DNA of 35,563 bases from a virus (lineage: Duplodnaviria > Caudoviricetes). Of this stretch, positions 3,022 through 33,726 are shown one piece after another. The notes under the pieces were generated by a model. It was not told the origin of the DNA and ran no database searches. It worked only from the letters and a program-made list of their open reading frames with translations. The position numbers were made by a program, and so were the translations under genes. Position 1 is the first letter of the stretch. Each line of letters begins with the position of its first letter. Location of the stretch: positions 1 through 35,563 of the IMG/VR virus record IMGVR_UViG_3300011338_000058; one strand, given 5' to 3'.

Positions 3022-3336
3022 ATGGAAAAACGATTTTTTGATGCAAGCCCCGAAAAAGGGATCACGCGCACTTGGCACTACAACGATGAGACTGATGAGG
3101 CAACGATTCAGACAACTCAGGATATGACTGCTGTCATTGAGGCCAACAAGCGCGACTTTGCTGCTGTGGACAACAAGGCGAACTGGAAAGGCGAGTGGCA
3201 TCATGTTGCCAGCATTCCTGAGTCGGTTTACTTTCAGTTGAAGGCAGAGGGCAAGCTGGATGATCAGGCTTACATGAAGAAATGGCTCAACGATTTTGAC
3301 AATAGATTTTTTAGAGTGAGGCCAGGTAAGGTATGA
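3022..3336 (+). CDS. Hypothetical phage protein
   Basis: 104 aa with HVASIP..KKWLND..N..FR motif, in the post-capsid position. Confidence 0.75.
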   Translation: MEKRFFDASPEKGITRTWHYNDETDEATIQTTQDMTAVIEANKRDFAAVDNKANWKGEWHHVASIPESVYFQLKAEGKLDDQAYMKKWLNDFDNRFFRVRPGKV

Positions 3337-3986
3337 ACTACATCGCAGTCTGCACGCCAGCGCGTGACATGGTCCACACCAATTACACATATTGCATGGT
3401 CAACATGGTTGCGTACCACACGCTCAACACCACTGACGCTGTCAGCCTCAAGATACTGCAAGGCACACTGATTCAGAATCAGCGTGCTGACTTGTGCCTT
3501 GACGCCATGCGTGAGGGGTGCAGCCATATCCTGTTTATCGACTCTGACATGACATTCCCACAAGACATGATCCAGCGGCTGCTGGCGCATGATGTGGACA
3601 TTGTGGCGGCCAACTGCGCTCGCAGACGTATGCCAACAGGACCAACCGCGCAGAACTATGACGAGAATGGCAAGCGTAAGGCTGTTTATACGATGCCCGA
3701 ATCATCAGGGCTTGAAGAAATCGGTTCTGTCGGTACTGGCGTCATGCTGATCAAGCGTGGTGTCTTTGAGGGTATGACTGAACCTTGGTTCGATATGCCT
3801 TGGCAGACTGGCACTCGCGGCTATATGGGAGAAGATGTCTTCTTTTGTAAAAAGGCGCAGGAGCTTGGCTTTAAAGTGTATATTGACCATGATGTCTCGA
3901 AAGAGATCGGACACATTGGCACATTTGAATTCAGACACGATCACACTTGGATCGTCAAAGAAGAGATGGAAAAAGAGGCAGTCTGA
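3333..3986 (+). CDS. GT-A fold (GT2-like) glycosyltransferase
   Basis: HILFIDSD (DxD motif), GTGVMLIKRGVF, GEDVFFC and a C-terminal GH motif. Confidence 0.8.
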   Translation: MNYIAVCTPARDMVHTNYTYCMVNMVAYHTLNTTDAVSLKILQGTLIQNQRADLCLDAMREGCSHILFIDSDMTFPQDMIQRLLAHDVDIVAANCARRRMPTGPTAQNYDENGKRKAVYTMPESSGLEEIGSVGTGVMLIKRGVFEGMTEPWFDMPWQTGTRGYMGEDVFFCKKAQELGFKVYIDHDVSKEIGHIGTFEFRHDHTWIVKEEMEKEAV

Positions 3987-19966: not shown

Positions 19967-20099
19967 AACGATGATTAGCTGATGGGAATAATTTAACTCC
20001 AGCCATTCTTCTGATTTGTTCTGCCTCTTCAGTAGGTGTCAAATTAACCGAGATAATTTCAGTGAATCCATTTTCATGGGTGATGTATTTATAAGGCAT
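19896..20099 (-). CDS. Small hypothetical protein, convergent with and overlapping the 715-aa gene
   Basis: 67 aa from ATG 20099 (MPYKYITHENG) with GGAG RBS, overlapping the stop of the upstream HTH gene. Confidence 0.55.
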   Translation of the reverse strand: MPYKYITHENGFTEIISVNLTPTEEAEQIRRMAGVKLFPSANHRSTSLDQVPRVQDQQEQHQKPEQP

Positions 20100-20466
20100 T
20101 TGATTCTCCAAACAGCGCAGCCACCAGCGGGTCACGCTTAATCTTCCACTTCTTTGCTCTCTCACGCGCCATGCGAAAGGCGTGATCGTCTAGTGTCTCC
20201 TTGGACCGCCAGCGTTTGAGTCTCTCTGCTGGCGTCATAGGTGCAGGCTTGACGGCATCAGTGCCAATGCCATGCCTATATACAGCCACCAGCACATTGC
20301 CTGATCTGCGCCATTCTTGGATGTGTACGACACCTTGCTGGCGCAGCTTATTAATCAGTATCTGCGCCGACCTCTCGGTGCAGTACACCTTGGCGGCCAC
20401 CTCGGGTGCGGTGCATCCAACGCGCTGGAGCAGATCGACAATGCGCGGCAGCCGTACAGACTTCAT
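20089..20466 (-). CDS. Winged-HTH DNA-binding protein
   Basis: CTAPEVAAKVYCTERSAQILINKLRQQGVV helix-turn-helix followed by beta wing, ATGA-coupled. Confidence 0.75.
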   Translation of the reverse strand: MKSVRLPRIVDLLQRVGCTAPEVAAKVYCTERSAQILINKLRQQGVVHIQEWRRSGNVLVAVYRHGIGTDAVKPAPMTPAERLKRWRSKETLDDHAFRMARERAKKWKIKRDPLVAALFGESNAL

Positions 20467-20630
20467 TTGTTGAGATGCTCGCGTCTTAGGTGGCGATCTG
20501 CTTCTTCTTTGTCGGTGAAGATCAAGCCGCAGCGCGTGCAGCGGTAACTCTTACCCTCATAGACGCTGGTCTGCTTCTCAGGGTGCTGGCCTTTGACTTT
20601 TCCAGTAAAGGTGCGAATTGTCTCAATCAT
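20463..20630 (-). CDS. C2H2 zinc-finger microprotein (55 aa, not in the ORF track)
   Basis: Manual translation ends YRCTRCGLIFTDKEEADRHLRREHLNK. ATGA overlaps at both ends. Confidence 0.75.
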   Translation of the reverse strand: MIETIRTFTGKVKGQHPEKQTSVYEGKSYRCTRCGLIFTDKEEADRHLRREHLNK

Positions 20631-20806
20631 TTGCTTGACTTTGCTTGCGAGTAGGCGGTGACTTGTTTCTTCTCATGCAGTCCAATCTTAGCCTGCGCTG
20701 CTTGACCCCATGCTCTGCCTTGGGAGATCATTTTCAGCTCTTTGTCACGACTCCAAATTGATGGTGTGCCATCTTTCCAGTCAAAGGCGGTCTTTATCTT
20801 ATTCAT
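20627..20806 (-). CDS. Hypothetical microprotein (59 aa)
   Basis: MNKIKTAFDWKDG..., GGAGGG RBS, ATGA overlaps at both ends. Confidence 0.7.
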   Translation of the reverse strand: MNKIKTAFDWKDGTPSIWSRDKELKMISQGRAWGQAAQAKIGLHEKKQVTAYSQAKSSK

Positions 20807-21024
20807 GCGTAATCACCCTCCTTTGTGTGTTCTGTCAGTCGCGCAGACAGGCGCTCAATTCGCTGCTCGTTGTACTGGATAGCTGCCCTTGCATATTCAG
20901 CCGCAGTCTCAGCTTCCAACTTGCGTAGGTGCGCCTCATGCAGTTCACTGGCAATGATTTCATGGATGGTCTTTGCCCTGATGACATCCTTGATGTACTT
21001 GATGGTTGTCTCTCTGAATGTCAT
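20803..21024 (-). CDS. Small coiled-coil protein
   Basis: 73 aa, ATGA-coupled, EL.EA....LEA..AAEYA.A...YN..RI.RL. Confidence 0.75.
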   Translation of the reverse strand: MTFRETTIKYIKDVIRAKTIHEIIASELHEAHLRKLEAETAAEYARAAIQYNEQRIERLSARLTEHTKEGDYA

Positions 21025-21590
21025 GTGTTCTTCTCCTTGAGTTTGGCTTCAACTGAATCCATCACAGCTTGAACTTGTTTTGTATATGTATAAAGTTTTC
21101 CATACCATTTAAGAAAGATGTTTTTCTTTTCCTCTGCCGTCAGCCCTACCCATGTGCGCTGTGGTGGTGTTAAATAAGCGTTTGAGTCTTTGAGGTCACC
21201 ACTGCCTATCCATGTGTTCTCCTGTGGTGGTGTGCAAGTGTGAATGGTGGTTAAGTCTGCTGTGCGTTTTCCGCATCGAGGGCAGAAGTTCTGCTTTGTG
21301 CGCTGTGGTGGGGGCATACAAAGATCGCCCTCATTTACCCAACAGAGAACAGCATCACCCGCCGCATAAAGTTCAGGGCTTATGTTTTTGCGCCATTCTT
21401 CAAAGTCATTTCCCTTTACTCGCTCCAATCTTGGGCGACACACCACAGGCTCTTGCGTCTGTGCCAAGGCTTGTGCCGCCATGTTCAATAACATGATGTC
21501 TGACGCATCAATCTTGATGCCCTCATGCCAACCTTCGCTAAATCTCACCGCAAGTTCCTCAAGCTCTATCTTAATTTCTTCTTGTGTCAT
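21021..21590 (-). CDS. Mosaic hypothetical protein with PPQ(R/E) linkers and a CxxC..H.C module
   Basis: QEPV, three PPQ linkers, CPRCG..HTC and an EAKLKEKNT terminus. Confidence 0.7.
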   Translation of the reverse strand: MTQEEIKIELEELAVRFSEGWHEGIKIDASDIMLLNMAAQALAQTQEPVVCRPRLERVKGNDFEEWRKNISPELYAAGDAVLCWVNEGDLCMPPPQRTKQNFCPRCGKRTADLTTIHTCTPPQENTWIGSGDLKDSNAYLTPPQRTWVGLTAEEKKNIFLKWYGKLYTYTKQVQAVMDSVEAKLKEKNT

Positions 21591-21823
21591 GCTTGCCCCC
21601 TTGCTCTGATGGCTTTTAATGCAAAAGTTAGATTAACTATTCTTCCCTCTTTTGAAGCATCTTCTAACACCTTTGCACACGCTTCTCTTTCCTTGTCTGC
21701 GGCATTTGACCAAGCAATCTGTGTAATGCGATGGGCAAATTCTTCCATGTCTTCAGTCGGTAACGGCAAAATTCCACTGCCCTCTTCCCACCACCATGTT
21801 GCGTATGCTTGCTCTTGTGTCAT
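21587..21823 (-). CDS. Hypothetical protein (EREACAK..AIRARG type)
   Basis: 78 aa, GGAGG RBS, ATGA-coupled. Confidence 0.75.
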   Translation of the reverse strand: MTQEQAYATWWWEEGSGILPLPTEDMEEFAHRITQIAWSNAADKEREACAKVLEDASKEGRIVNLTFALKAIRARGQA

Positions 21824-21978
21824 TTCTTCACCTCCTTAATCTCTTTCTGTATCCCTGCGCTCATTTGCAGAAACATCCGCATCCACTTCACACCGCCAAG
21901 CCTTACATACTCGGCGTACTCGGATTGGGTGAGTCGCAACGTGATGGCGCGTCCCAGTTCTGTCTTCTCTTTAATCAT
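21820..21978 (-). CDS. Ribbon-helix-helix-like microprotein (52 aa)
   Basis: MIKEKTELGRAITLRLTQSEYAEYVRLGGVKWMR has an alternating beta strand followed by two helices. GAGG RBS. Confidence 0.6.
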   Translation of the reverse strand: MIKEKTELGRAITLRLTQSEYAEYVRLGGVKWMRMFLQMSAGIQKEIKEVKK

Positions 21979-22085
21979 CAGTCAACCTCAAATTGCAAAA
22001 TAAGCCAAACAAAAATAAACAGCGTTCCAATCACCACAGCAACGCCAAACAAGGCGATCATGAAGAAGATCAGGGCAGTTTGCAT
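21978..22085 (-). CDS. Single-TM microprotein (35 aa)
   Basis: MQTALIFFMIALFGVAVVIGTLFIFVWLILQFEVD, GAGG RBS, TGATG overlap with the next gene. Confidence 0.6.
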   Translation of the reverse strand: MQTALIFFMIALFGVAVVIGTLFIFVWLILQFEVD

Positions 22086-22228
22086 GGCTTGGCCTCACTT
22101 GGTGGAGTCCAACCAAAGCGCCGCCAAGTGGCCTGCACATCAGTTGGCTTGGGATACTTAAACTCTTTGGCGTAGGCGCTTGGGAGCGTCACTTTTGTGC
22201 CGATTGGAGGACGCCAGTCGCCTCTCAT
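22070..22228 (-). CDS. Hypothetical microprotein (52 aa)
   Basis: MRGDWRPP..TDVQATWRRFGWTPPSE, ATGA-coupled. Confidence 0.65.
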   Translation of the reverse strand: MRGDWRPPIGTKVTLPSAYAKEFKYPKPTDVQATWRRFGWTPPSEAKPCKLP

Positions 22229-22494
22229 TTCTGCACCGCCAAGAGTTCCATCTCAGCCTCTTTGAGGCGCTCTTGGATGCACTTCATCTCATACTCAAGC
22301 TGATCGAGCTGGCGCTGCATACGCTCGCGGGTGAACCTCTCAGCGTGCGCCCATCCAATGACAGCGCCACAGGTCACAGACTTGCGGATGAGTTGGACCA
22401 TCTCGGCCTGCGTCATAACGCCAATAGCAGTCTCTTTGGGTGGGGAGAGGCGCAGCACCTCGGCGTCTATTTCGTCTTGCATCTTCTTGCTCAT
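22225..22494 (-). CDS. Hypothetical protein with C-terminal coiled coil
   Basis: Start MSKKMQDE at an ATGA overlap with GAGGG RBS. Confidence 0.7.
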   Translation of the reverse strand: MSKKMQDEIDAEVLRLSPPKETAIGVMTQAEMVQLIRKSVTCGAVIGWAHAERFTRERMQRQLDQLEYEMKCIQERLKEAEMELLAVQK

Positions 22495-22658
22495 ACTTCC
22501 CTCGCTTTCAGTTTGCATTCATAGACTTTTTTGGCGACATAGAACTGCCCCATCTTTTCGCATTCTTCACCAATAATTGATGCTGATATTGCCCATGTCA
22601 AACCAATAAATACACCAACAATGATTGATGTAATTACTCCAACAAAAAAATCAGTCAT
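22491..22658 (-). CDS. AT-rich single-TM microprotein (55 aa)
   Basis: MTDFFVGVITSIIVGVFIGLTWAISASIIGEEC..YECKLKAREV, flanked by 21-bp direct repeats. Confidence 0.7.
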   Translation of the reverse strand: MTDFFVGVITSIIVGVFIGLTWAISASIIGEECEKMGQFYVAKKVYECKLKAREV

Positions 22659-22675
22659 ACTTCCCTCGCTTTCAG
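22491..22675. repeat. Pair of perfect 21-bp direct repeats at gene junctions
   Basis: TCATACTTCCCTCGCTTTCAG at 22491-22511 and 22655-22675. Confidence 0.9.
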
Positions 22676-22864
22676 CATTGCGTCTGCTAGGTCGTAGGCT
22701 TCTGCCGCCAAGCGGTTGCTAGACCATTCCATAGATGGCCCACTTGCACAAATACCTTGCATAACCTTTGCCGCAAAATAATCACGCAATGTCATGCCTC
22801 TTGAATTTGTTTCTTGGTCTTCTATGTAAACGCTTTGACTTGGAAATGCTGGTGGGTTGCTCAT
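22655..22864 (-). CDS. Hypothetical protein (GMTLRDYFAAK type)
   Basis: PAFP..GMTLRDYFAAK.MQ..AY.LADAMLKAR, a motif common in proteobacterial phages. Confidence 0.8.
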   Translation of the reverse strand: MSNPPAFPSQSVYIEDQETNSRGMTLRDYFAAKVMQGICASGPSMEWSSNRLAAEAYDLADAMLKAREV

Positions 22865-23001
22865 GATGTCCACCATGCTGTGATCAAGAGGGCGAGGCCA
22901 ACGCCGATAGCGATGGCGGTGAGGAAGTCAAGGGCAGAGTCAGCGCGGCGATTTAAGTGCCTCTTTTCTGCTTCCATGTAGGGATGTTGGGTGTAGTTCA
23001 T
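22861..23001 (-). CDS. Single-TM microprotein (46 aa)
   Basis: MNYTQHPY..DFLTAIAIGVGLALLITAWWTS, AAGGA RBS, ATGA-coupled to the next gene. Confidence 0.65.
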   Translation of the reverse strand: MNYTQHPYMEAEKRHLNRRADSALDFLTAIAIGVGLALLITAWWTS

Positions 23002-23013
23002 TTCAAAGTTTCC

Positions 23014-23241
23014 TTAGAGTTGAAATTGCTGATGCTGCTTGAGGTCATACTTCATTGTGTCCTTACCACGTATAACGTATTGAACGCAAGCATCGCCATG
23101 TTCTTTGAAAAAAGGAAGATGGTGTTTTGCATCAGGGAAGTGTTGTTGGATTTGTTCAAGGCTCATGTGAGCGCCATCAACCAAACGCAACAGCCATGCG
23201 TTGTTGGCAATGATTGCGGTGATGGTGGTAGTTTCTTTCAT
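23014..23241 (-). CDS. Hypothetical early protein
   Basis: 75 aa, TAAGGA RBS. Confidence 0.7.
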   Translation of the reverse strand: MKETTTITAIIANNAWLLRLVDGAHMSLEQIQQHFPDAKHHLPFFKEHGDACVQYVIRGKDTMKYDLKQHQQFQL

Positions 23242-23253
23242 GGTGTTTTCCTT

Positions 23254-23275
23254 AAAAGTGGAGGCCGAAGCCCCC
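23254..23275 (-). terminator. C(UUCG)G hairpin between the first two leftward genes (weak terminator or mRNA stabiliser)
   Basis: Minus strand reads GGGGGC-TTCG-GCCTCC-ACTTTT. Confidence 0.55.
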
Positions 23276-23282
23276 TGGTTGA

Positions 23283-23510
23283 TTATTTAGAACGGCGAGT
23301 GAAAAGTGCCAAAGCACTTTCAAAGGGTAAGTTTTTCTCAACATAGCGCCAAGTCTTGCTCATGCCGCCATGAACTTTGCCGTTATAGTTTTCACACAGT
23401 TTGTACACCGCATAGGTGCAGTCATCTGCATCAGCAGACAAACCAGTGTGAACGGCAAACAACCCATACTGAACGCCGTTTTTGTTTGTTTTGATTTCGA
23501 CTGCTTTCAT
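23283..23510 (-). CDS. First gene of the leftward early operon, hypothetical
   Basis: 75 aa, AGGGG RBS, directly downstream of the leftward promoter. Confidence 0.75.
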   Translation of the reverse strand: MKAVEIKTNKNGVQYGLFAVHTGLSADADDCTYAVYKLCENYNGKVHGGMSKTWRYVEKNLPFESALALFTRRSK

Positions 23511-23702: not shown

Positions 23703-23732
23703 TTGACGCTTTCCACAAAACATGGTTAACAT
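23703..23732 (+). promoter_or_regulatory. Rightward sigma70 promoter, probably giving a leaderless mRNA
   Basis: TTGACG-18 bp-TAACAT. The expected start site falls on ATG 23740, which has no SD sequence. Confidence 0.65.
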
Positions 23733-23739
23733 TCTACAC

Positions 23740-23979
23740 ATGAAAACGATCTCACAGGAAGCACTCCAAGCAATACGCCATAAGGTTGAGGCCGCTGGCT
23801 ACAAGATGAGCGATGTCTGCCGAGTCGCACAAATCGATCAGGCGCAGGTATCCCGCTGGATGTCGGGGACCACAGAGCCACTATACGGCAGTGTGATCCG
23901 CTTGGATCAGGCAGCCGATGCCTTGGTGTCAGCTCGCCTCACAGTCCTCAACAAAGCCATGGAAGACGCCGTCAAATGA
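23740..23979 (+). CDS. Cro/XRE-like HTH regulator
   Basis: MSDVCRVAQIDQAQVSRWMSGTTEP HTH. 79 aa, no peptidase domain. Confidence 0.85.
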   Translation: MKTISQEALQAIRHKVEAAGYKMSDVCRVAQIDQAQVSRWMSGTTEPLYGSVIRLDQAADALVSARLTVLNKAMEDAVK

Positions 23980-24467
23980 TGACCACCAACTTCAAACCTC
24001 GCAGGATCATTGGCATTGACGTTGGCTTGTCAGGCGCAATTGCCATGATGGAGGGCGAGACACTGGTTGGCATTTTCGATATGCCCACAGTGACCCTAGA
24101 CCGCAACGGCAAAGCCAAGCGTCAGATCAGCATCCCTGAGCTGATCGGCATCCTCAATGACTTCAAGCCTGATGAGGCGTACATTGAAAAGGTCTTTGCC
24201 ATGGCAGGCCAGGGAGTCACCAGCGTATTTAGCTTTGGCCGCAGCCTTGGCGCGATTGAGGGTGTCATTGCCGCAAGGTCAATCAAGGCCACTCTGATCA
24301 CGCCACAGACATGGCAAAAGGCGATGGGCGTGACAGGTGGCAAGGATGGCGCAAGGGCGCGTGCCATGGAGCTGTTCCCATGGAATGTGGACTACTTCAA
24401 GCGCAAGAAAGACGATGGCCGAGCCGATGCAGCACTGATTGCCTGTTGGGGACTGCGCCATGGATGA
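23976..24467 (+). CDS. RuvC-like Holliday junction resolvase
   Basis: IIGID.G..GAIA, YIEKV, F.FG...G, P..W.K and DGRADAALIA acidic motifs. Confidence 0.85.
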   Translation: MMTTNFKPRRIIGIDVGLSGAIAMMEGETLVGIFDMPTVTLDRNGKAKRQISIPELIGILNDFKPDEAYIEKVFAMAGQGVTSVFSFGRSLGAIEGVIAARSIKATLITPQTWQKAMGVTGGKDGARARAMELFPWNVDYFKRKKDDGRADAALIACWGLRHG

Positions 24468-28713: not shown

Positions 28714-29394
28714 ATGGCAACAAAGAGAACAGCAAACAAGCATCCAGTGGTGGAGACACCAAGCCCAAAGGCAGACGCTTGGACGATTCATGTGCAATCG
28801 AAGTTGGTCGAGTTGGAGGCAGTCAAAGCCGCCAGCGATAGGAAATGGGGAGAAAACAGACTGTGTACTTTGGTAAGCAGTGAGGTTAGAGAGAAATTCT
28901 GGACTCAGAACGGCAGATTGCATCAAGCGATGGCGGCCAAAGATTGGGCGAAGTTTGATTCCAGCTTGGCAGGGATGATCAGGGCATATGGCGTGCTGGA
29001 CAAACTAGCGACAGATGATGGGTGTGAGCCAGCGTCATCAATACCGAGGATTGAGTGGGAGATGCAAAATGGTCAGACCATGGTGATTGTCAGAAGTGTC
29101 AACGAAGCTGTGGCAATACAGACTCAGCGTCAGGACTTGTCGAATCACCACATTTGGTCGATGCAGGAACTTGAAGCATTGCTGGCTGACGAGCGTATGC
29201 AGGCAGTTATCAAGATCAATGCGCTTGTGCCAACAGCGCAGCTCACCAGCTTTAAGCCAACCTCAGAGTTCAAGCCTGGCGGTGCAACCGGCTTTGATGA
29301 CTTTGAAAATGACTTAACTTTCAACGACAATGACACCATGGAATACAAGTTCAATTCCGAACAGGCAGAAAGGTTCAAGAATGGATCAAATTAA
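28714..29394 (+). CDS. Hypothetical protein
   Basis: 226 aa, AAGGAG RBS, KWG..RL..LV motif. Confidence 0.8.
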   Translation: MATKRTANKHPVVETPSPKADAWTIHVQSKLVELEAVKAASDRKWGENRLCTLVSSEVREKFWTQNGRLHQAMAAKDWAKFDSSLAGMIRAYGVLDKLATDDGCEPASSIPRIEWEMQNGQTMVIVRSVNEAVAIQTQRQDLSNHHIWSMQELEALLADERMQAVIKINALVPTAQLTSFKPTSEFKPGGATGFDDFENDLTFNDNDTMEYKFNSEQAERFKNGSN

Positions 29395-29470
29395 GCGATT
29401 GGCGGCACTTATCCGCGAAAAGGTACTGGACATCGTCCAGCGCGTTAAAACGGCTTTAGGGAGGGTCTGA
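29381..29470 (+). CDS. Amphipathic basic microprotein (29 aa)
   Basis: MDQIKRLAALIREKVLDIVQRVKTALGRV, AAGG RBS, fills the gap up to terS. Confidence 0.45.
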   Translation: MDQIKRLAALIREKVLDIVQRVKTALGRV

Positions 29471-29472
29471 GC

Positions 29473-29901
29473 GTGGCTGGACGACCTAAATTCAGACAGG
29501 ACATGGAATTGCTGGAAGAACTGCCAGACGACATGATCGTGTCAATGCTTGAGGCAGGCAAGTCGCAGACGATGATCTGCTACGAGCTTGGCATTGGGCG
29601 CAGGGCGCTCGAGCAATGGATCGAAGATACCGATCCCTCTATAATTGCGCGTGCGCGCGCGAAAGCCGCCGATAAACTCGCGGTGGAGACTATGACCATC
29701 GCAGACAGCATGGCGGACAGCAATCCGCAGCGCGATGTCCAGCGCATCCGCACTCGCCAGTGGCTGGCCGAAAGGTGGGATCAGAAAACTTATGGTCTAC
29801 AAAAGGCGCAGCAAATCAACATCAACGTGCAGGACTTACGCATGGCGGCACTGCGCCATGTCGAGGTTATCGATGACTTATCCACAGAAAAAAGCGCATG
29901 A
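29473..29901 (+). CDS. terS: Terminase small subunit
   Basis: GTG start with GGAGGG RBS. GRP start, HTH, ARAR..AAD.LA.E...IAD and RI.TR.WLA motifs. Upstream of terL. Confidence 0.75.
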   Translation: MAGRPKFRQDMELLEELPDDMIVSMLEAGKSQTMICYELGIGRRALEQWIEDTDPSIIARARAKAADKLAVETMTIADSMADSNPQRDVQRIRTRQWLAERWDQKTYGLQKAQQININVQDLRMAALRHVEVIDDLSTEKSA

Positions 29902-29974
29902 TGCACACATTGACCTGTGGACAACTGCAAATTGCCTGTTTATTGGGCGAAATCGCTGAAGTTATCCACAATAA

Positions 29975-30002
29975 AGTTAACATAATAGTGATTGTATTAA
30001 AC
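29975..30002 (-). other. dif-like XerC/XerD recombination site
   Basis: Minus strand GTTTAATACAA-TCACTA-TTATGTTAACT in 11-6-11 layout. The XerD arm matches TTATGTTAAAT at 10 of 11 positions. Confidence 0.7.
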
Positions 30003-30035
30003 CGATTATGTAAGCCTCATGTAAGAAAGCATATG

Positions 30036-30048
30036 AATCAATGACTTA
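30036..30048 (+). promoter_or_regulatory. IHF binding site
   Basis: AATCAA-TGAC-TTA is an exact match to WATCAANNNNTTR. Confidence 0.65.
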
Positions 30049-30186
30049 CAAGCGCATCGACCTGTGGATAACTTTTCAGCCGTTTACTGGCCTCCGGTGG
30101 CTGGCTGCGGCCTGCGCGATGACCCCCCCTTTGCTCGCGGCGGCGGGGGCGGCAGCAGTTGCACCTAAACACATATCGCCACCACG

Positions 30187-31665
30187 ATGACCGCACCCCC
30201 TACCCCTACTCCCCCCACCGCGCAAAAGCGCCTCCCGAAAAAAAATTCCAATGATTTGGTGACGAATAACCCATTTGTTGAATTCGTCAAGCTCTACAAG
30301 AATAACCCTGTCCTGTTTGTTAAGGAAGTCCTTAACACCGAGCCTGATGCGTGGCAGATAGAGTTCCTCAATCACATCGCCGCCGGCCACCGCCGCATCT
30401 CTGTACGTTCAGGCCATGGCGTAGGCAAATCGACAGCGTCAGCATGGGCGATGATTTGGTACTTGTTCCTGCGCTTTCCTGTCAAGGTGGTGGTGACTGC
30501 GCCAACCAGCTCACAGCTCTATGACGCCTTGTTTGCTGAAGTCAAGCGTTGGGTTAAGGTGCTGCCACCTATGCTGGCTGACCAGTTGGAGGTGAAGCAG
30601 GACCGCATCGAGGTGAAAGACGCCAACGAAGAGGCGTTCATCTCTGCCAGGACCAGCCGCGCAGAGCAGCCCGAAGCGTTACAGGGTGTCCACAGCGACA
30701 ACGTGATGCTGGTGGCTGATGAGGCATCCGGCGTGCCTGAAAAGGTCTTTGAGGCGGCATCAGGATCAATGTCGGGGCATAACGCTGTGACGTTGTTGCT
30801 TGGCAACCCTGTGCGTTCTAGCGGTTTCTTTTACGACACCCATAATCGATTGGCGGGTGACTGGGTGACGATGCGCGTGAGCTGCGCCGACTCGCCCCGA
30901 GTCAGTGAGGCTTACATTGAGGAGATGAAGTCGAGGTATGGCGAGGAAAGCAACGCCTACCGCATCCGCGTCTTGGGTGAATTCCCCAGAAGTGACGAAG
31001 ATACTGTGATTCCTATGGAGTTGCTGGATTTGGCGATGAATCGTGATGTTGAGGCGAGTCCTTATGCGCCACTGGTGTGGGGATTGGACGTTGCGAGGTT
31101 TGGGTCTGACAGGTCGGCGCTGTGCAAGAGGCGTGGAAATGCTGTGATTGAGCCGATAAAGACTTGGAAAAACTTAGATTTGATGCAGTTGACTGGTGCT
31201 GTGGTGGCTGAGTTTGAGGCGTTGCCGCCAAGCGACAGGCCAGAAGAGATACTGGTGGACAGCATTGGGTTGGGCGCTGGCGTGGTGGATCGGTTGAAAG
31301 AGTTGGGGCTGCCAGCGCGTGGTATCAATGTGTCTGAGAGTCCTGCCATGGGCGGTACTTACAGGAACTTGAAGGCCGAGCTTTGGTACAAGGCCAAGGC
31401 GTGGTTGGAGCAGCGCGACTGCCGGTTGCCTAAAGATGAGCTGCTGGTGGCTGAGTTGGCGACTGTGAGGTATATGTTTACGAGCAACGGCAAGATTCAG
31501 ATTGAGAGCAAGGATGACATCAAGAAGCGTGGTTTGGCGAGTCCTGACAAGGCTGATGCGTTTTGCTTGACCTTTGCGTCAGACGCTGTGATTGGCATGA
31601 TGGGGTCGAAGTCCAGTACGAAGTGGAATCAGCCGTTGAAAAGAAACCTATCAAGGGTTGCATAA
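30187..31665 (+). CDS. terL: Terminase large subunit
   Basis: Walker A SGHGVGKS, Walker B LVADEA, LLGNP, nuclease motifs GLDVARFGSD and SPDKADA. Confidence 0.95.
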   Translation: MTAPPTPTPPTAQKRLPKKNSNDLVTNNPFVEFVKLYKNNPVLFVKEVLNTEPDAWQIEFLNHIAAGHRRISVRSGHGVGKSTASAWAMIWYLFLRFPVKVVVTAPTSSQLYDALFAEVKRWVKVLPPMLADQLEVKQDRIEVKDANEEAFISARTSRAEQPEALQGVHSDNVMLVADEASGVPEKVFEAASGSMSGHNAVTLLLGNPVRSSGFFYDTHNRLAGDWVTMRVSCADSPRVSEAYIEEMKSRYGEESNAYRIRVLGEFPRSDEDTVIPMELLDLAMNRDVEASPYAPLVWGLDVARFGSDRSALCKRRGNAVIEPIKTWKNLDLMQLTGAVVAEFEALPPSDRPEEILVDSIGLGAGVVDRLKELGLPARGINVSESPAMGGTYRNLKAELWYKAKAWLEQRDCRLPKDELLVAELATVRYMFTSNGKIQIESKDDIKKRGLASPDKADAFCLTFASDAVIGMMGSKSSTKWNQPLKRNLSRVA

Positions 31666-32387: not shown

Positions 32388-32538
32388 GCCTGGCCTCTAC
32401 GCCAACATCCACGCCAAGCAAAAACGCATAGCGGCTGGCTCTGGCGAGAAGATGAACAAGGTCGGCTCTAAGGCCGCGCCATCCGCTGCTGACTTCAAAC
32501 TGGCGGCCAAGACTGCCAAGAAGAAGCCTAAGAAGTGA
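32377..32538 (+). CDS. Small Lys/Ala-rich protein
   Basis: MKTKPGLYANIHAKQKRI..., GGAG RBS, 53 aa. Confidence 0.75.
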   Translation: MKTKPGLYANIHAKQKRIAAGSGEKMNKVGSKAAPSAADFKLAAKTAKKKPKK

Positions 32539-33233
32539 TCTCACCGATATGCGTCAGCACAGTACACGGCAAAGGTTTGCGGGTGATGCTCACAAGCATT
32601 GCCGAGTATTGTCCCGAAGTGCCTGTCTATTTGCGCGGACCCGAGTCCATTATTGGCGGCTTTGACGCCGACCTCAAGGTATTTGGTGCGCCGCACAATT
32701 TCGGTGAAGATTACAACGACATCATGGATCGTGCCTTTGCTGATGGCTTTGAGTCTGTGATCTGCGCCAATGATGACATTGTGCTGACCCCCACCAGCTA
32801 CCGGCATCTGATGGAAGATGTGGCGCAGTTAAAGGCTGAGACTGGCGAACCTGTCGGTTGGGTATCAGCACGCTGTGACGCGGCGCGTCCTGTGCAGAAT
32901 GTGCGGAGCAATCCCTTTGACCAGCAGCTTGAATACTTCAAGTACCCCTATGAAGACGCCATCATGCCAATGGAGTGTCTAAGCCCGATATTTGCTTGGA
33001 TTGGCAGAGATGCGTGGGAGGTGCAGAAGTTCCCGCCATTGAATTGGTACTCTGATGATGTGCATTGCGAAGACTTGCGTGCCGCGGGTTTCCACCATTA
33101 TTTGAGCCGGTCTTATGTCCATCATGTTGGCAGCCAAACGATTGGCATGGACGGCAATAAGCTGATTCAGCAGGCAGTGCCTTGGTTGCGAAAGAACAGG
33201 CCGAAATATGCAGCAGACTGGTTTGGTTCTTAA
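32535..33233 (+). CDS. GT-A fold (GT2-like) glycosyltransferase
   Basis: NFG..YN, ICANDDIVL, WYSDD..C and YVHHVGSQT motifs. Confidence 0.8.
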   Translation: MISPICVSTVHGKGLRVMLTSIAEYCPEVPVYLRGPESIIGGFDADLKVFGAPHNFGEDYNDIMDRAFADGFESVICANDDIVLTPTSYRHLMEDVAQLKAETGEPVGWVSARCDAARPVQNVRSNPFDQQLEYFKYPYEDAIMPMECLSPIFAWIGRDAWEVQKFPPLNWYSDDVHCEDLRAAGFHHYLSRSYVHHVGSQTIGMDGNKLIQQAVPWLRKNRPKYAADWFGS

Positions 33234-33726
33234 TCTCGGTTCAGGCAAAGACCACCGCGCTGATTGCGTGAATGCTGACATTCGCGCAGATGTTGGCGCC
33301 GATTGGGTTGTCGATATTTGCAAGCCATTGGACACCGACAGGCGCTTTGACAAGATCATTGCCAATGATGTGTTGGAGCATTTGCCCGATTTGGTGGCAG
33401 GCATGACCAACTGCCGCGATTTGCTGATGGATGGTGGCGAGATGCACATCCATGTGCCTTATGACTTGAGCTATGGCGCGTGGCAAGACCCGACCCATGT
33501 GAGAGCATTCAACGAAAAGTCTTGGGTTTATTACTGTGAGTGGGCGTGGTATTTGGGATGGATGGGCAGCAGATTTGAGTTGGTGCATTTGGAGATGCGT
33601 CTCAGCGAGTATGGTGCGAGTCTAAAATTGCCACAAGACGAGGTGATGCGTATGCCTCGCGCAGTTGACTCTATGTATGTCGTTCTAAAGAAAGTCCCAT
33701 ATGAAAACACCCGCGTGGCAGCGTAG
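33208..33726 (+). CDS. Class I SAM-dependent methyltransferase
   Basis: LNLGSG, VNADI, A.DVLEH, L..GG...I.VP and DPTHVR motifs. Confidence 0.85.
   Translation: MQQTGLVLNLGSGKDHRADCVNADIRADVGADWVVDICKPLDTDRRFDKIIANDVLEHLPDLVAGMTNCRDLLMDGGEMHIHVPYDLSYGAWQDPTHVRAFNEKSWVYYCEWAWYLGWMGSRFELVHLEMRLSEYGASLKLPQDEVMRMPRAVDSMYVVLKKVPYENTRVAA

Follow-up and report, generated by a model that had tools for sequence, protein, structure and literature searches.

We find that a freshwater tailed phage carries, between its two terminase genes, a core site for XerC and XerD, recombinases of the host, and that this site, which would lie at the ends of the phage genome, most likely works in the way of loxP or cer but by means of the host's enzyme. 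The phage is IMG/VR record IMGVR_UViG_3300011338_000058, and the window is the whole stretch of DNA that we analysed, 35,563 nucleotides long. It is a complete phage genome, assembled as a circle with an assembly overlap of 127 bases, and it holds the complete gene set of a podophage. PHROGs and Pfam profiles identify a portal, a capsid protein and an adaptor of SU10 type, a primase-helicase, an exonuclease and a RuvC-like Holliday-junction resolvase (23976..24467, plus strand), as well as the terminase small subunit gene terS (29473..29901, plus strand; phrog_1482, PF20901) and the large subunit gene terL (30187..31665, plus strand; phrog_2), 55% identical to phiM5 terL. The window terS has no match among GenBank phages, and the 226-aa frame directly before it (28714-29394) matches no PHROGs, Pfam or NCBIfam family. 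A methyltransferase-domain gene (32535-33726) and a glycosyltransferase-like gene (3333-3986) sit among the head and packaging genes, and a short leftward block of small genes without known function (20089-23510) diverges from a helix-turn-helix gene at 23722. Three close terL relatives (P0066, P0071 and P0073) are about 820 aa long, with the extra Pfam domains PF13403 and PF14890, and probably contain inteins.

The site occupies positions 29975..30002 of the minus strand, within the 285-base gap between terS and terL, where it reads GTTTAATACAA TCACTA TTATGTTAACT, as a first-pass annotation of this DNA had it. It consists of two 11-bp arms with partial dyad symmetry around a 6-bp centre (XerC arm 30002-29992, spacer 29991-29986, XerD arm 29985-29975). 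Compared with the E. coli-type dif of locus L178, the XerD arm has one mismatch, which bears out the claimed 10/11 match and 6-bp spacing, and the XerC arm has six. The annotation had called the XerC arm degenerate and likened its inner TACAA to the ColE1 cer site. This holds against E. coli but not against a host-type dif in the style of the Comamonadaceae (L399), from which the two arms together differ by a single base, and metagenome contigs contain host-type sites with arms one or two bases away from those of the window. Thus, the XerC arm is a copy of a host arm rather than a degenerate cer-like one, and the comparison with cer is unneeded, given that host dif arms ending in TACAA exist.

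Scoring the site against the genome background, a check that the annotation had proposed, sets it well above other AT-rich sites: with a weight matrix of the arms only, built from 29 dif sites of the Limnohabitans genus, it reaches 22.6 bits, where the next best position in the genome reaches 4.7 and host sites range from 20.5 to 39.9. It is also the only match to the XerD arm with at most one mismatch in the whole genome. The gap is AT-rich, and a chance match within such intergenic DNA could be invoked, but none of 150 local dinucleotide shuffles attained 22.6 bits (maximum 17.2), all 71 assessable relatives keep the site, and across distant phages its arms follow the host lineage; chance is a vanishingly improbable explanation. 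By its sequence, the window site is a real Xer core site of the dif-like kind.

The arms also point to the host, which is probably a Limnohabitans/Rhodoferax-type betaproteobacterium. We took 127 genomes belonging to the same genus as a Limnohabitans bin; 66 of them match a dif pattern, mostly with spacer TGTATA, and the Rhodoferax dif has the inner arms of the window site (PMC2731167). The centre of dif is described as telling replicons apart and preventing their fusion (PMC2731167). We ran the suggested comparison of the 6-bp spacer with dif of candidate hosts, and found that three of six positions differ from the common host spacer TGTATA and one of six from the rare host spacer TCAATA. The latter occurs together with an arm ending in TACAA in three host dif sites (G051, G089, G454); L311 and L544 are loci with this rare host variant, the first of which lies in the usual dif neighbourhood.

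The annotation would have given up the site if its arms and spacing were not conserved in relatives. A scan of IMG/VR confirmed at least 597 terL relatives, from which the best 80 were kept and nine then excluded for too little upstream DNA; each of the 71 that could be assessed among these best 80 carries the site, once in inverted orientation, with the proviso that these relatives are closely related and the counts not independent. Across 47 distinct regions, conservation is 0.95 in the XerD arm, 0.85 in the XerC arm, 0.80 in the spacer and 0.70-0.77 in the flanks. Ten spacer types occur among the 71, and the common host spacer TGTATA is never one of them, nor was it found at any of 120 loci in a free-spacer scan. 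The XerC-side triplet of the spacer is TGT or TCA, both of which are found in host dif sites, in 56 of the 71 relatives and lacks such a half-match in 15; the XerD-side triplet is never ATA.

Farther afield the site becomes patchy. We examined 85 more distant terL loci, namely five from GenBank phages and 80 out of 170 found in bacterial genome bins. Eight have a clear site within 900 nt of terL, some in each orientation, with terL identity going as low as about 45%; the others show no clear one within that distance. A loose pattern matched in 5 of 17 phage records, with the match between terS and terL only in C72C1 and MJing1; we discounted those in Venkman, which lies inside the portal gene, and in Thiohalocapsa phage MD04, which has no terminase annotation near it within the 5 kb inspected. 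A Bradyrhizobium record also gave a match. In a second lineage the terL gene does not match that of the window, yet the lineage has the same layout of DnaA box, Xer site, TGTAAG words, IHF site and DnaA box, and in its members (L428, L430, L435, L437, L445 and similar) a G-run replaces the C-run described below. A third group of viral contigs (L460, L467, L474, L476, L484, L489) combines the same host-type arms with GC-rich spacers and has no DnaA boxes; the frames that flank its sites have no PHROG match.

What is the site for? The first-pass annotation had offered two roles, an attP for integration at host dif and a site that resolves phage dimers. Integration was thought to separate terL and the virion operon from upstream transcription and so to act as an off switch. 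As the main role, attP lacks support, because we found neither a split site nor a host-phage junction, the spacer is three positions off that of the common host, and cultured lytic phages hold the same kind of site inside their terminal repeats. The switch would moreover turn the other way, since recombination would be expected to join terS and terL rather than part them. A narrower version deserves more thought, namely an attP of the VGJphi type, in which XerC exchanges the first strands with host dif, the resulting junction is resolved by replication and integration between terS and terL would silence the virion genes. VGJphi is described as integrating by spacer homology on one side only (PMC5357621), and the spacers lend this idea some of their weight: the XerC-side triplet agrees with a host triplet in the 56 relatives noted above, with the XerD side never ATA, and the TCAATA dif sites with a TACAA arm are one position away from the window spacer. 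For the window itself, XerC-side homology is absent with TGTATA and present with TCAATA. In addition, no integrase was found in the window. Among the scanned frames (51 against PHROGs and Pfam, 18 against NCBIfam), families of integrase, partition and repressor proteins had no match, a weak helix-turn-helix match at 23722 being the sole exception. PF00589 was without a match in a six-frame search of the whole window, and was absent from 22 relatives (seven of them near-complete) and from 16 further records.

The search for integrated copies weighs on the other side. Among 70 loci that combine phage-type arms with a host spacer (69 from metagenomes, one viral), a pattern designed for hybrid junctions, none has phage genes within 2.5 kb, and terS, terL, primase, portal and capsid find no match at any of them; we rejected these loci as junctions, since the pattern matches ordinary host dif sites. 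The window has no tblastx match in 101 host-type dif loci and 25 further ones. No integrated close relative occurs in the 127 Limnohabitans-genus genomes, mostly incomplete bins in which rare lysogens could be missed; terL matched in three of them, and the sole close match is a 3-kb binned contig. Of the 66 genomes with a dif match, 65 have a single dif-type site, and the extra one sits in a satellite. Beyond the missing repressor match, 15 of 71 relatives are without the half-match, a single relative carries the site in inverted orientation, and the spacers of rV5-like phages differ on both sides. We weigh the XerC-side triplet against the missing junctions, and regard a VGJphi-type attP as clearly unlikely.

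The extra site belongs to a satellite-like element with an integrase, AlpA and a DUF927 primase at a tRNA-Thr (G060:C2, about 107351-117516; L315, L320), and was rejected as a prophage junction, since the element has no similarity to the window. Its spacer, TGTCCA, is the commonest of the phage clade, which would in principle allow recombination between satellite and phage. Another integrase-bearing element (L554, G289:C1:666506-669526) has an Xer site with a non-host spacer far from its genome's own dif, accompanied by two DnaA boxes and by genes that probably form a toxin-antitoxin pair. Since integrase-bearing elements (L184, L223, L315, L554) keep such sites, the site is not needed as an att there. 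Set against the integrative elements known as IMEX, the window lacks an integrase of its own, as they do, but no integrated copy with hybrid sites was found in the incomplete host genomes. The TLC type, with a degenerate XerD arm and XafT, does not apply either: the XerD arm is intact, and PF12375, which we take to be XafT, has no match. On these observations we do not class the window phage as an IMEX.

We think instead that the gap is probably a direct terminal repeat, judging from a hint in sequencing depth and from analogy with phiM5. When contigs of at least 99% identity are laid on the window, the bin 29667-30117 is the deepest of 30 in four of four runs, at 2.09, 2.11, 2.37 and 2.17 times the median (run medians 12 to 74); these values are depths of assembled contigs, which are no measure of copy number, and the runs, from two studies, are possibly the source samples. 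Headful packaging would be expected to give a step, whereas the peak seen here is narrow. Contigs of the phage's own strain that run from 29727 or 29757 to 30309 have a depth of only 1.5-1.7 times, run X1 yielded a single long contig that shows no local depth peak, and the left ends of contigs from relatives do not cluster at one position. The annotated left terminal repeat of phiM5 is 357 bp long and stops just before terL, 13 nt past a C-run and G-run motif that the window shares (30123..30149, plus strand) and that lies just inside the right end of the phiM5 repeat. Mapped by this motif, the equivalent right end in the window is at about 30162, and the predicted repeat, which would mark the physical ends of the genome, spans approximately 29757..30162, both boundaries being approximate. 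We rejected the motif as a hairpin, since 195 of 200 shuffles fold as well. No Xer site was found in the phiM5 terminal repeat, and phiM5 is described as temperate (PMC10386132). If the phage genome ends as predicted, terS and terL are probably parted already by the physical ends of the virion DNA.

The gap is crowded with other candidate binding sites, among them four DnaA boxes, an IHF-like site and three TGTAAG words that the first-pass annotation had overlooked. With the consensus of 10.1101/866236, all three perfect DnaA boxes of the genome, for which 0.27 would be expected, fall here, at 29878..29886 (plus strand, among the final codons of terS, where it reads in frame as Leu-Ser-Thr), 29962..29970 (plus strand, 4 nt from the XerD arm) and 30063..30071 (minus strand). 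A further box with one mismatch, at 29916..29924 (minus strand), is conserved in position. Three TGTAAG words between 30009 and 30050 (30009 and 30020 on the plus strand, 30045 on the minus strand), present in 59 of 81 non-redundant regions, are candidate sites for the small terminase or an accessory protein. They enclose the genome's sole match to what we take to be the IHF consensus (30036..30048, plus strand), found at the same distance in 56 of the 81 regions. This IHF-like site and the TGTAAG words probably belong to packaging, because an IHF-like site between repeated words recalls what we presume to be the arrangement of lambda cosB. A KOPS-like octamer at 30198..30205 (minus strand) points at the Xer site, as it does in 55 of 71 relatives and never away from it, but it may reflect a C-rich strand; a C-rich control word scored 26 against 66, the octamer of the second lineage points away, and the KOPS-like support is weak. 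A promoter scan of 29300-30400 stayed at chance level.

DnaA and IHF sites beside an Xer site also recall a pSC101-like module, that is, an origin together with a psi-like site for dimer resolution, on which the phage would persist as a circular carrier-state plasmid. The concentration of perfect DnaA boxes and of the only IHF consensus in the gap suits such a module, as do the primase-helicase, with no DNA polymerase identified among the profiled frames, and the contigs of relatives in host bins (L087, L088). We consider it very doubtful all the same, for the window has no profile match to ParA/ParB or a plasmid initiator, the depth peak points to a terminal repeat, and the DnaA boxes are missing from three cultured repeats (those of phages Gotham, UPEC06 and SYP), and several distant relatives have lost or lack them while the Xer site is still there. 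The boxes, which probably serve origin firing or membrane tethering, are thus an optional neighbour of the Xer site. They are also described in the terminal repeat of T5 (10.1101/866236).

Terminal repeats with Xer sites do exist in cultured phages. A 46-base dif-like query matched 143 GenBank phage records, mostly rV5-like. In Gotham, an rV5-like phage (MT682716.1 1-459), perfect E. coli arms flank the spacer TGGGTA at 170-197 of the annotated 459-bp repeat at both ends, and end repeats that we measured from the record ends enclose the sites of UPEC06 (462 bp) and of Pseudomonas phage vB_PpS_SYP (351 bp). EdH4 and HdK5, with terminal redundancies of 458 bp (PMC6563267), match the query twice. 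Counting matches at any position, the query also found Klebsiella, Cronobacter, Salmonella and Erwinia phages of Vequintavirinae size and Rheinheimera phages. The repeat sites of the rV5-like and Pseudomonas phages (L337, L347, L349) appear to be unannotated. rV5-like phages are unrelated myoviruses, and support the class of site rather than the window phage.

A breadth scan of IMG/VR with the canonical dif pattern, which does not match the window's own site, gave at least 120 loci, an estimated 1100 in total, counted without dereplication. We annotated the largest frame on each side for the first 80 (147 frames), the other 40 being left out for short flanks. Thirty of the 80 adjoin terL and four terS only, so that 34 have a terminase gene beside the site; 11 are inovirus-like by our own assignment and 35 have no assignment. 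At 29 of the 30 terL loci the site lies upstream of the gene, and at 20 its XerC arm is the one toward terL. The host spacer occurs at none of the 34 terminase loci, as against 8 of the 11 inovirus-like ones, and an integrase in 4 of the 26 records tested. In several phages (L185, L216, L231, L232, L241, L244) a dif-like site adjoins a lambda O-like initiator gene.

To explain these results, we propose that the window site is a self-recombination site for host XerCD, which joins the phage's ends or resolves its multimers; on balance, we hold this to be probable. Taken separately, end-joining is a tentative reading, and later multimer resolution, the second role foreseen by the first-pass annotation, fits the evidence but is the more tentative one. 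The 28-bp site consists of host-type dif arms with a different spacer, likely within a direct terminal repeat, so that a virion with the repeat would contain two directly oriented copies. A single Xer crossover of one end copy with the other would then yield a unit circle, a crossover between two molecules would join them head to tail, and a crossover on a dimeric circle would release monomers. All three outcomes need only that the spacer be identical to itself, which explains why it varies freely. We infer that XerCD cuts at the window site, and that entry into the host chromosome is prevented by the mismatched spacer. Joined ends would put terL and the virion genes behind the transcript of replication genes and terS, and any junction that XerC makes could be completed by the RuvC-like resolvase of the phage. 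It is ordinarily FtsK, acting near the septum, that activates XerD, and XerC forms junctions at a low basal level that are resolved by replication (PMC9226527); cer requires supercoiling and accessory proteins (PMC5357621). The need for FtsK or for such cofactors weighs against a reaction on fresh linear DNA.

The site might serve for docking rather than crossover, with bound XerCD or XerD recruiting or blocking other host machines through Topo IV decatenation, condensin unloading or FtsK stopping. The greater conservation of the XerD arm (0.95, against 0.85 for XerC) agrees with docking, as do the unloading of SMC by XerD at extra dif-like sites in Bacillus and Staphylococcus (PMC9226527) and the place of the site amid other host-protein motifs, for which the DnaA boxes of the T5 repeat offer a parallel (10.1101/866236). 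On the other hand, 71 of 71 relatives, as well as the rV5-like phages, retain both arms at a spacing of exactly 6 bp, whereas described XerD-only sites have a degenerate second half, and binding alone would not need a spacer that is always non-host. Docking strikes us as rather unlikely.

Should self-recombination by XerCD be the function, its reach would extend beyond this phage. To our knowledge, how ends are closed or concatemers formed after entry is poorly known for most groups of phages with short terminal repeats. We envision, as a conjecture that may well prove wrong, that a host Xer site came to lie in the terminal repeats of many tailed phages, among them virulent rV5-like coliphages and abundant freshwater podophages, on independent occasions, and that host XerCD serves these phages as their Cre, closing the injected genome or building concatemers; closure would here switch on the virion operon, and the private spacer would be a lock against the host chromosome. 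XerCD would then be a lytic-cycle host factor in a wide range of tailed phages, including rV5-like ones. The phage uses of XerCD that we found in the literature concern integration of non-tailed phages. For uncultured phages, the arms of the site offer a signal for host prediction and a marker of genome ends, and a dif-like site alone is poor ground for calling a phage temperate.

How does this compare with known systems? Published accounts of phage Xer use treat filamentous phages, tailless phages and microviruses (PMC7062461, PMC12715192, PMC9966536, as far as these texts were available), and a literature search in which subscription papers were thinly covered and supplements lay outside returned no description of a tailed phage whose terminal repeat contains a host Xer site, nor of the rV5-like site. 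The chromosomal dif of the Comamonadaceae, the substrate of XerC/XerD and FtsK, shares the 11-6-11 layout and has arms within one or two bases, but the window site is on a phage, has a non-host spacer and weak KOPS support. The cer site of ColE1 and psi of pSC101 likewise let a mobile element use host XerCD on its own multimers, with conserved protein-binding words on the XerC side, where the window too has conserved words. Accessory DNA at cer and psi is bound by PepA together with ArgR or ArcA. However, the centre of cer is 8 bp long and its accessory DNA for PepA and ArgR takes up about 180 bp (PMC5357621), where the window has a centre of 6 bp and words of the DnaA, IHF and TGTAAG type, and the window has no plasmid replicon and no par or rep match. 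IMEX (VGJphi, TLCphi, CTXphi, gokushoviruses, GGI) resemble the window in lacking an integrase and having a dif-like site, with a VGJ-like one-sided spacer in most relatives. The described phage IMEX are non-tailed or satellites, however, and no integrated copy was found here; moreover, the window XerD arm is intact, in contrast to TLC and GGI, and the paired hairpin att of CTX is absent.

Other comparisons concern the terminal repeat itself. T5 also has ordered DnaA boxes in its terminal repeat, but that repeat is about 10 kb long and tied to two-step injection, and the preprint on it does not contain the word Xer (10.1101/866236). The Vequintavirinae share dif arms with a non-host spacer in a repeat of about 460 bp; they are unrelated myoviruses of 135-150 kb, and their repeat has neither DnaA boxes nor an IHF consensus. 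In P1, Cre and loxP circularise terminally redundant DNA. They are also described in multimer resolution (PMC10999674). Both systems rest on a tyrosine-recombinase core site used from phage to phage, but the window phage, in which no tyrosine recombinase was found, would use host XerCD, its ends look like a fixed short repeat, and it is without plasmid-prophage genes. As with loxP in P1, the packaged DNA of Gotham, UPEC06 and SYP contains two copies of the site, and the depth hint and the analogy with phiM5 suggest the same for the window.
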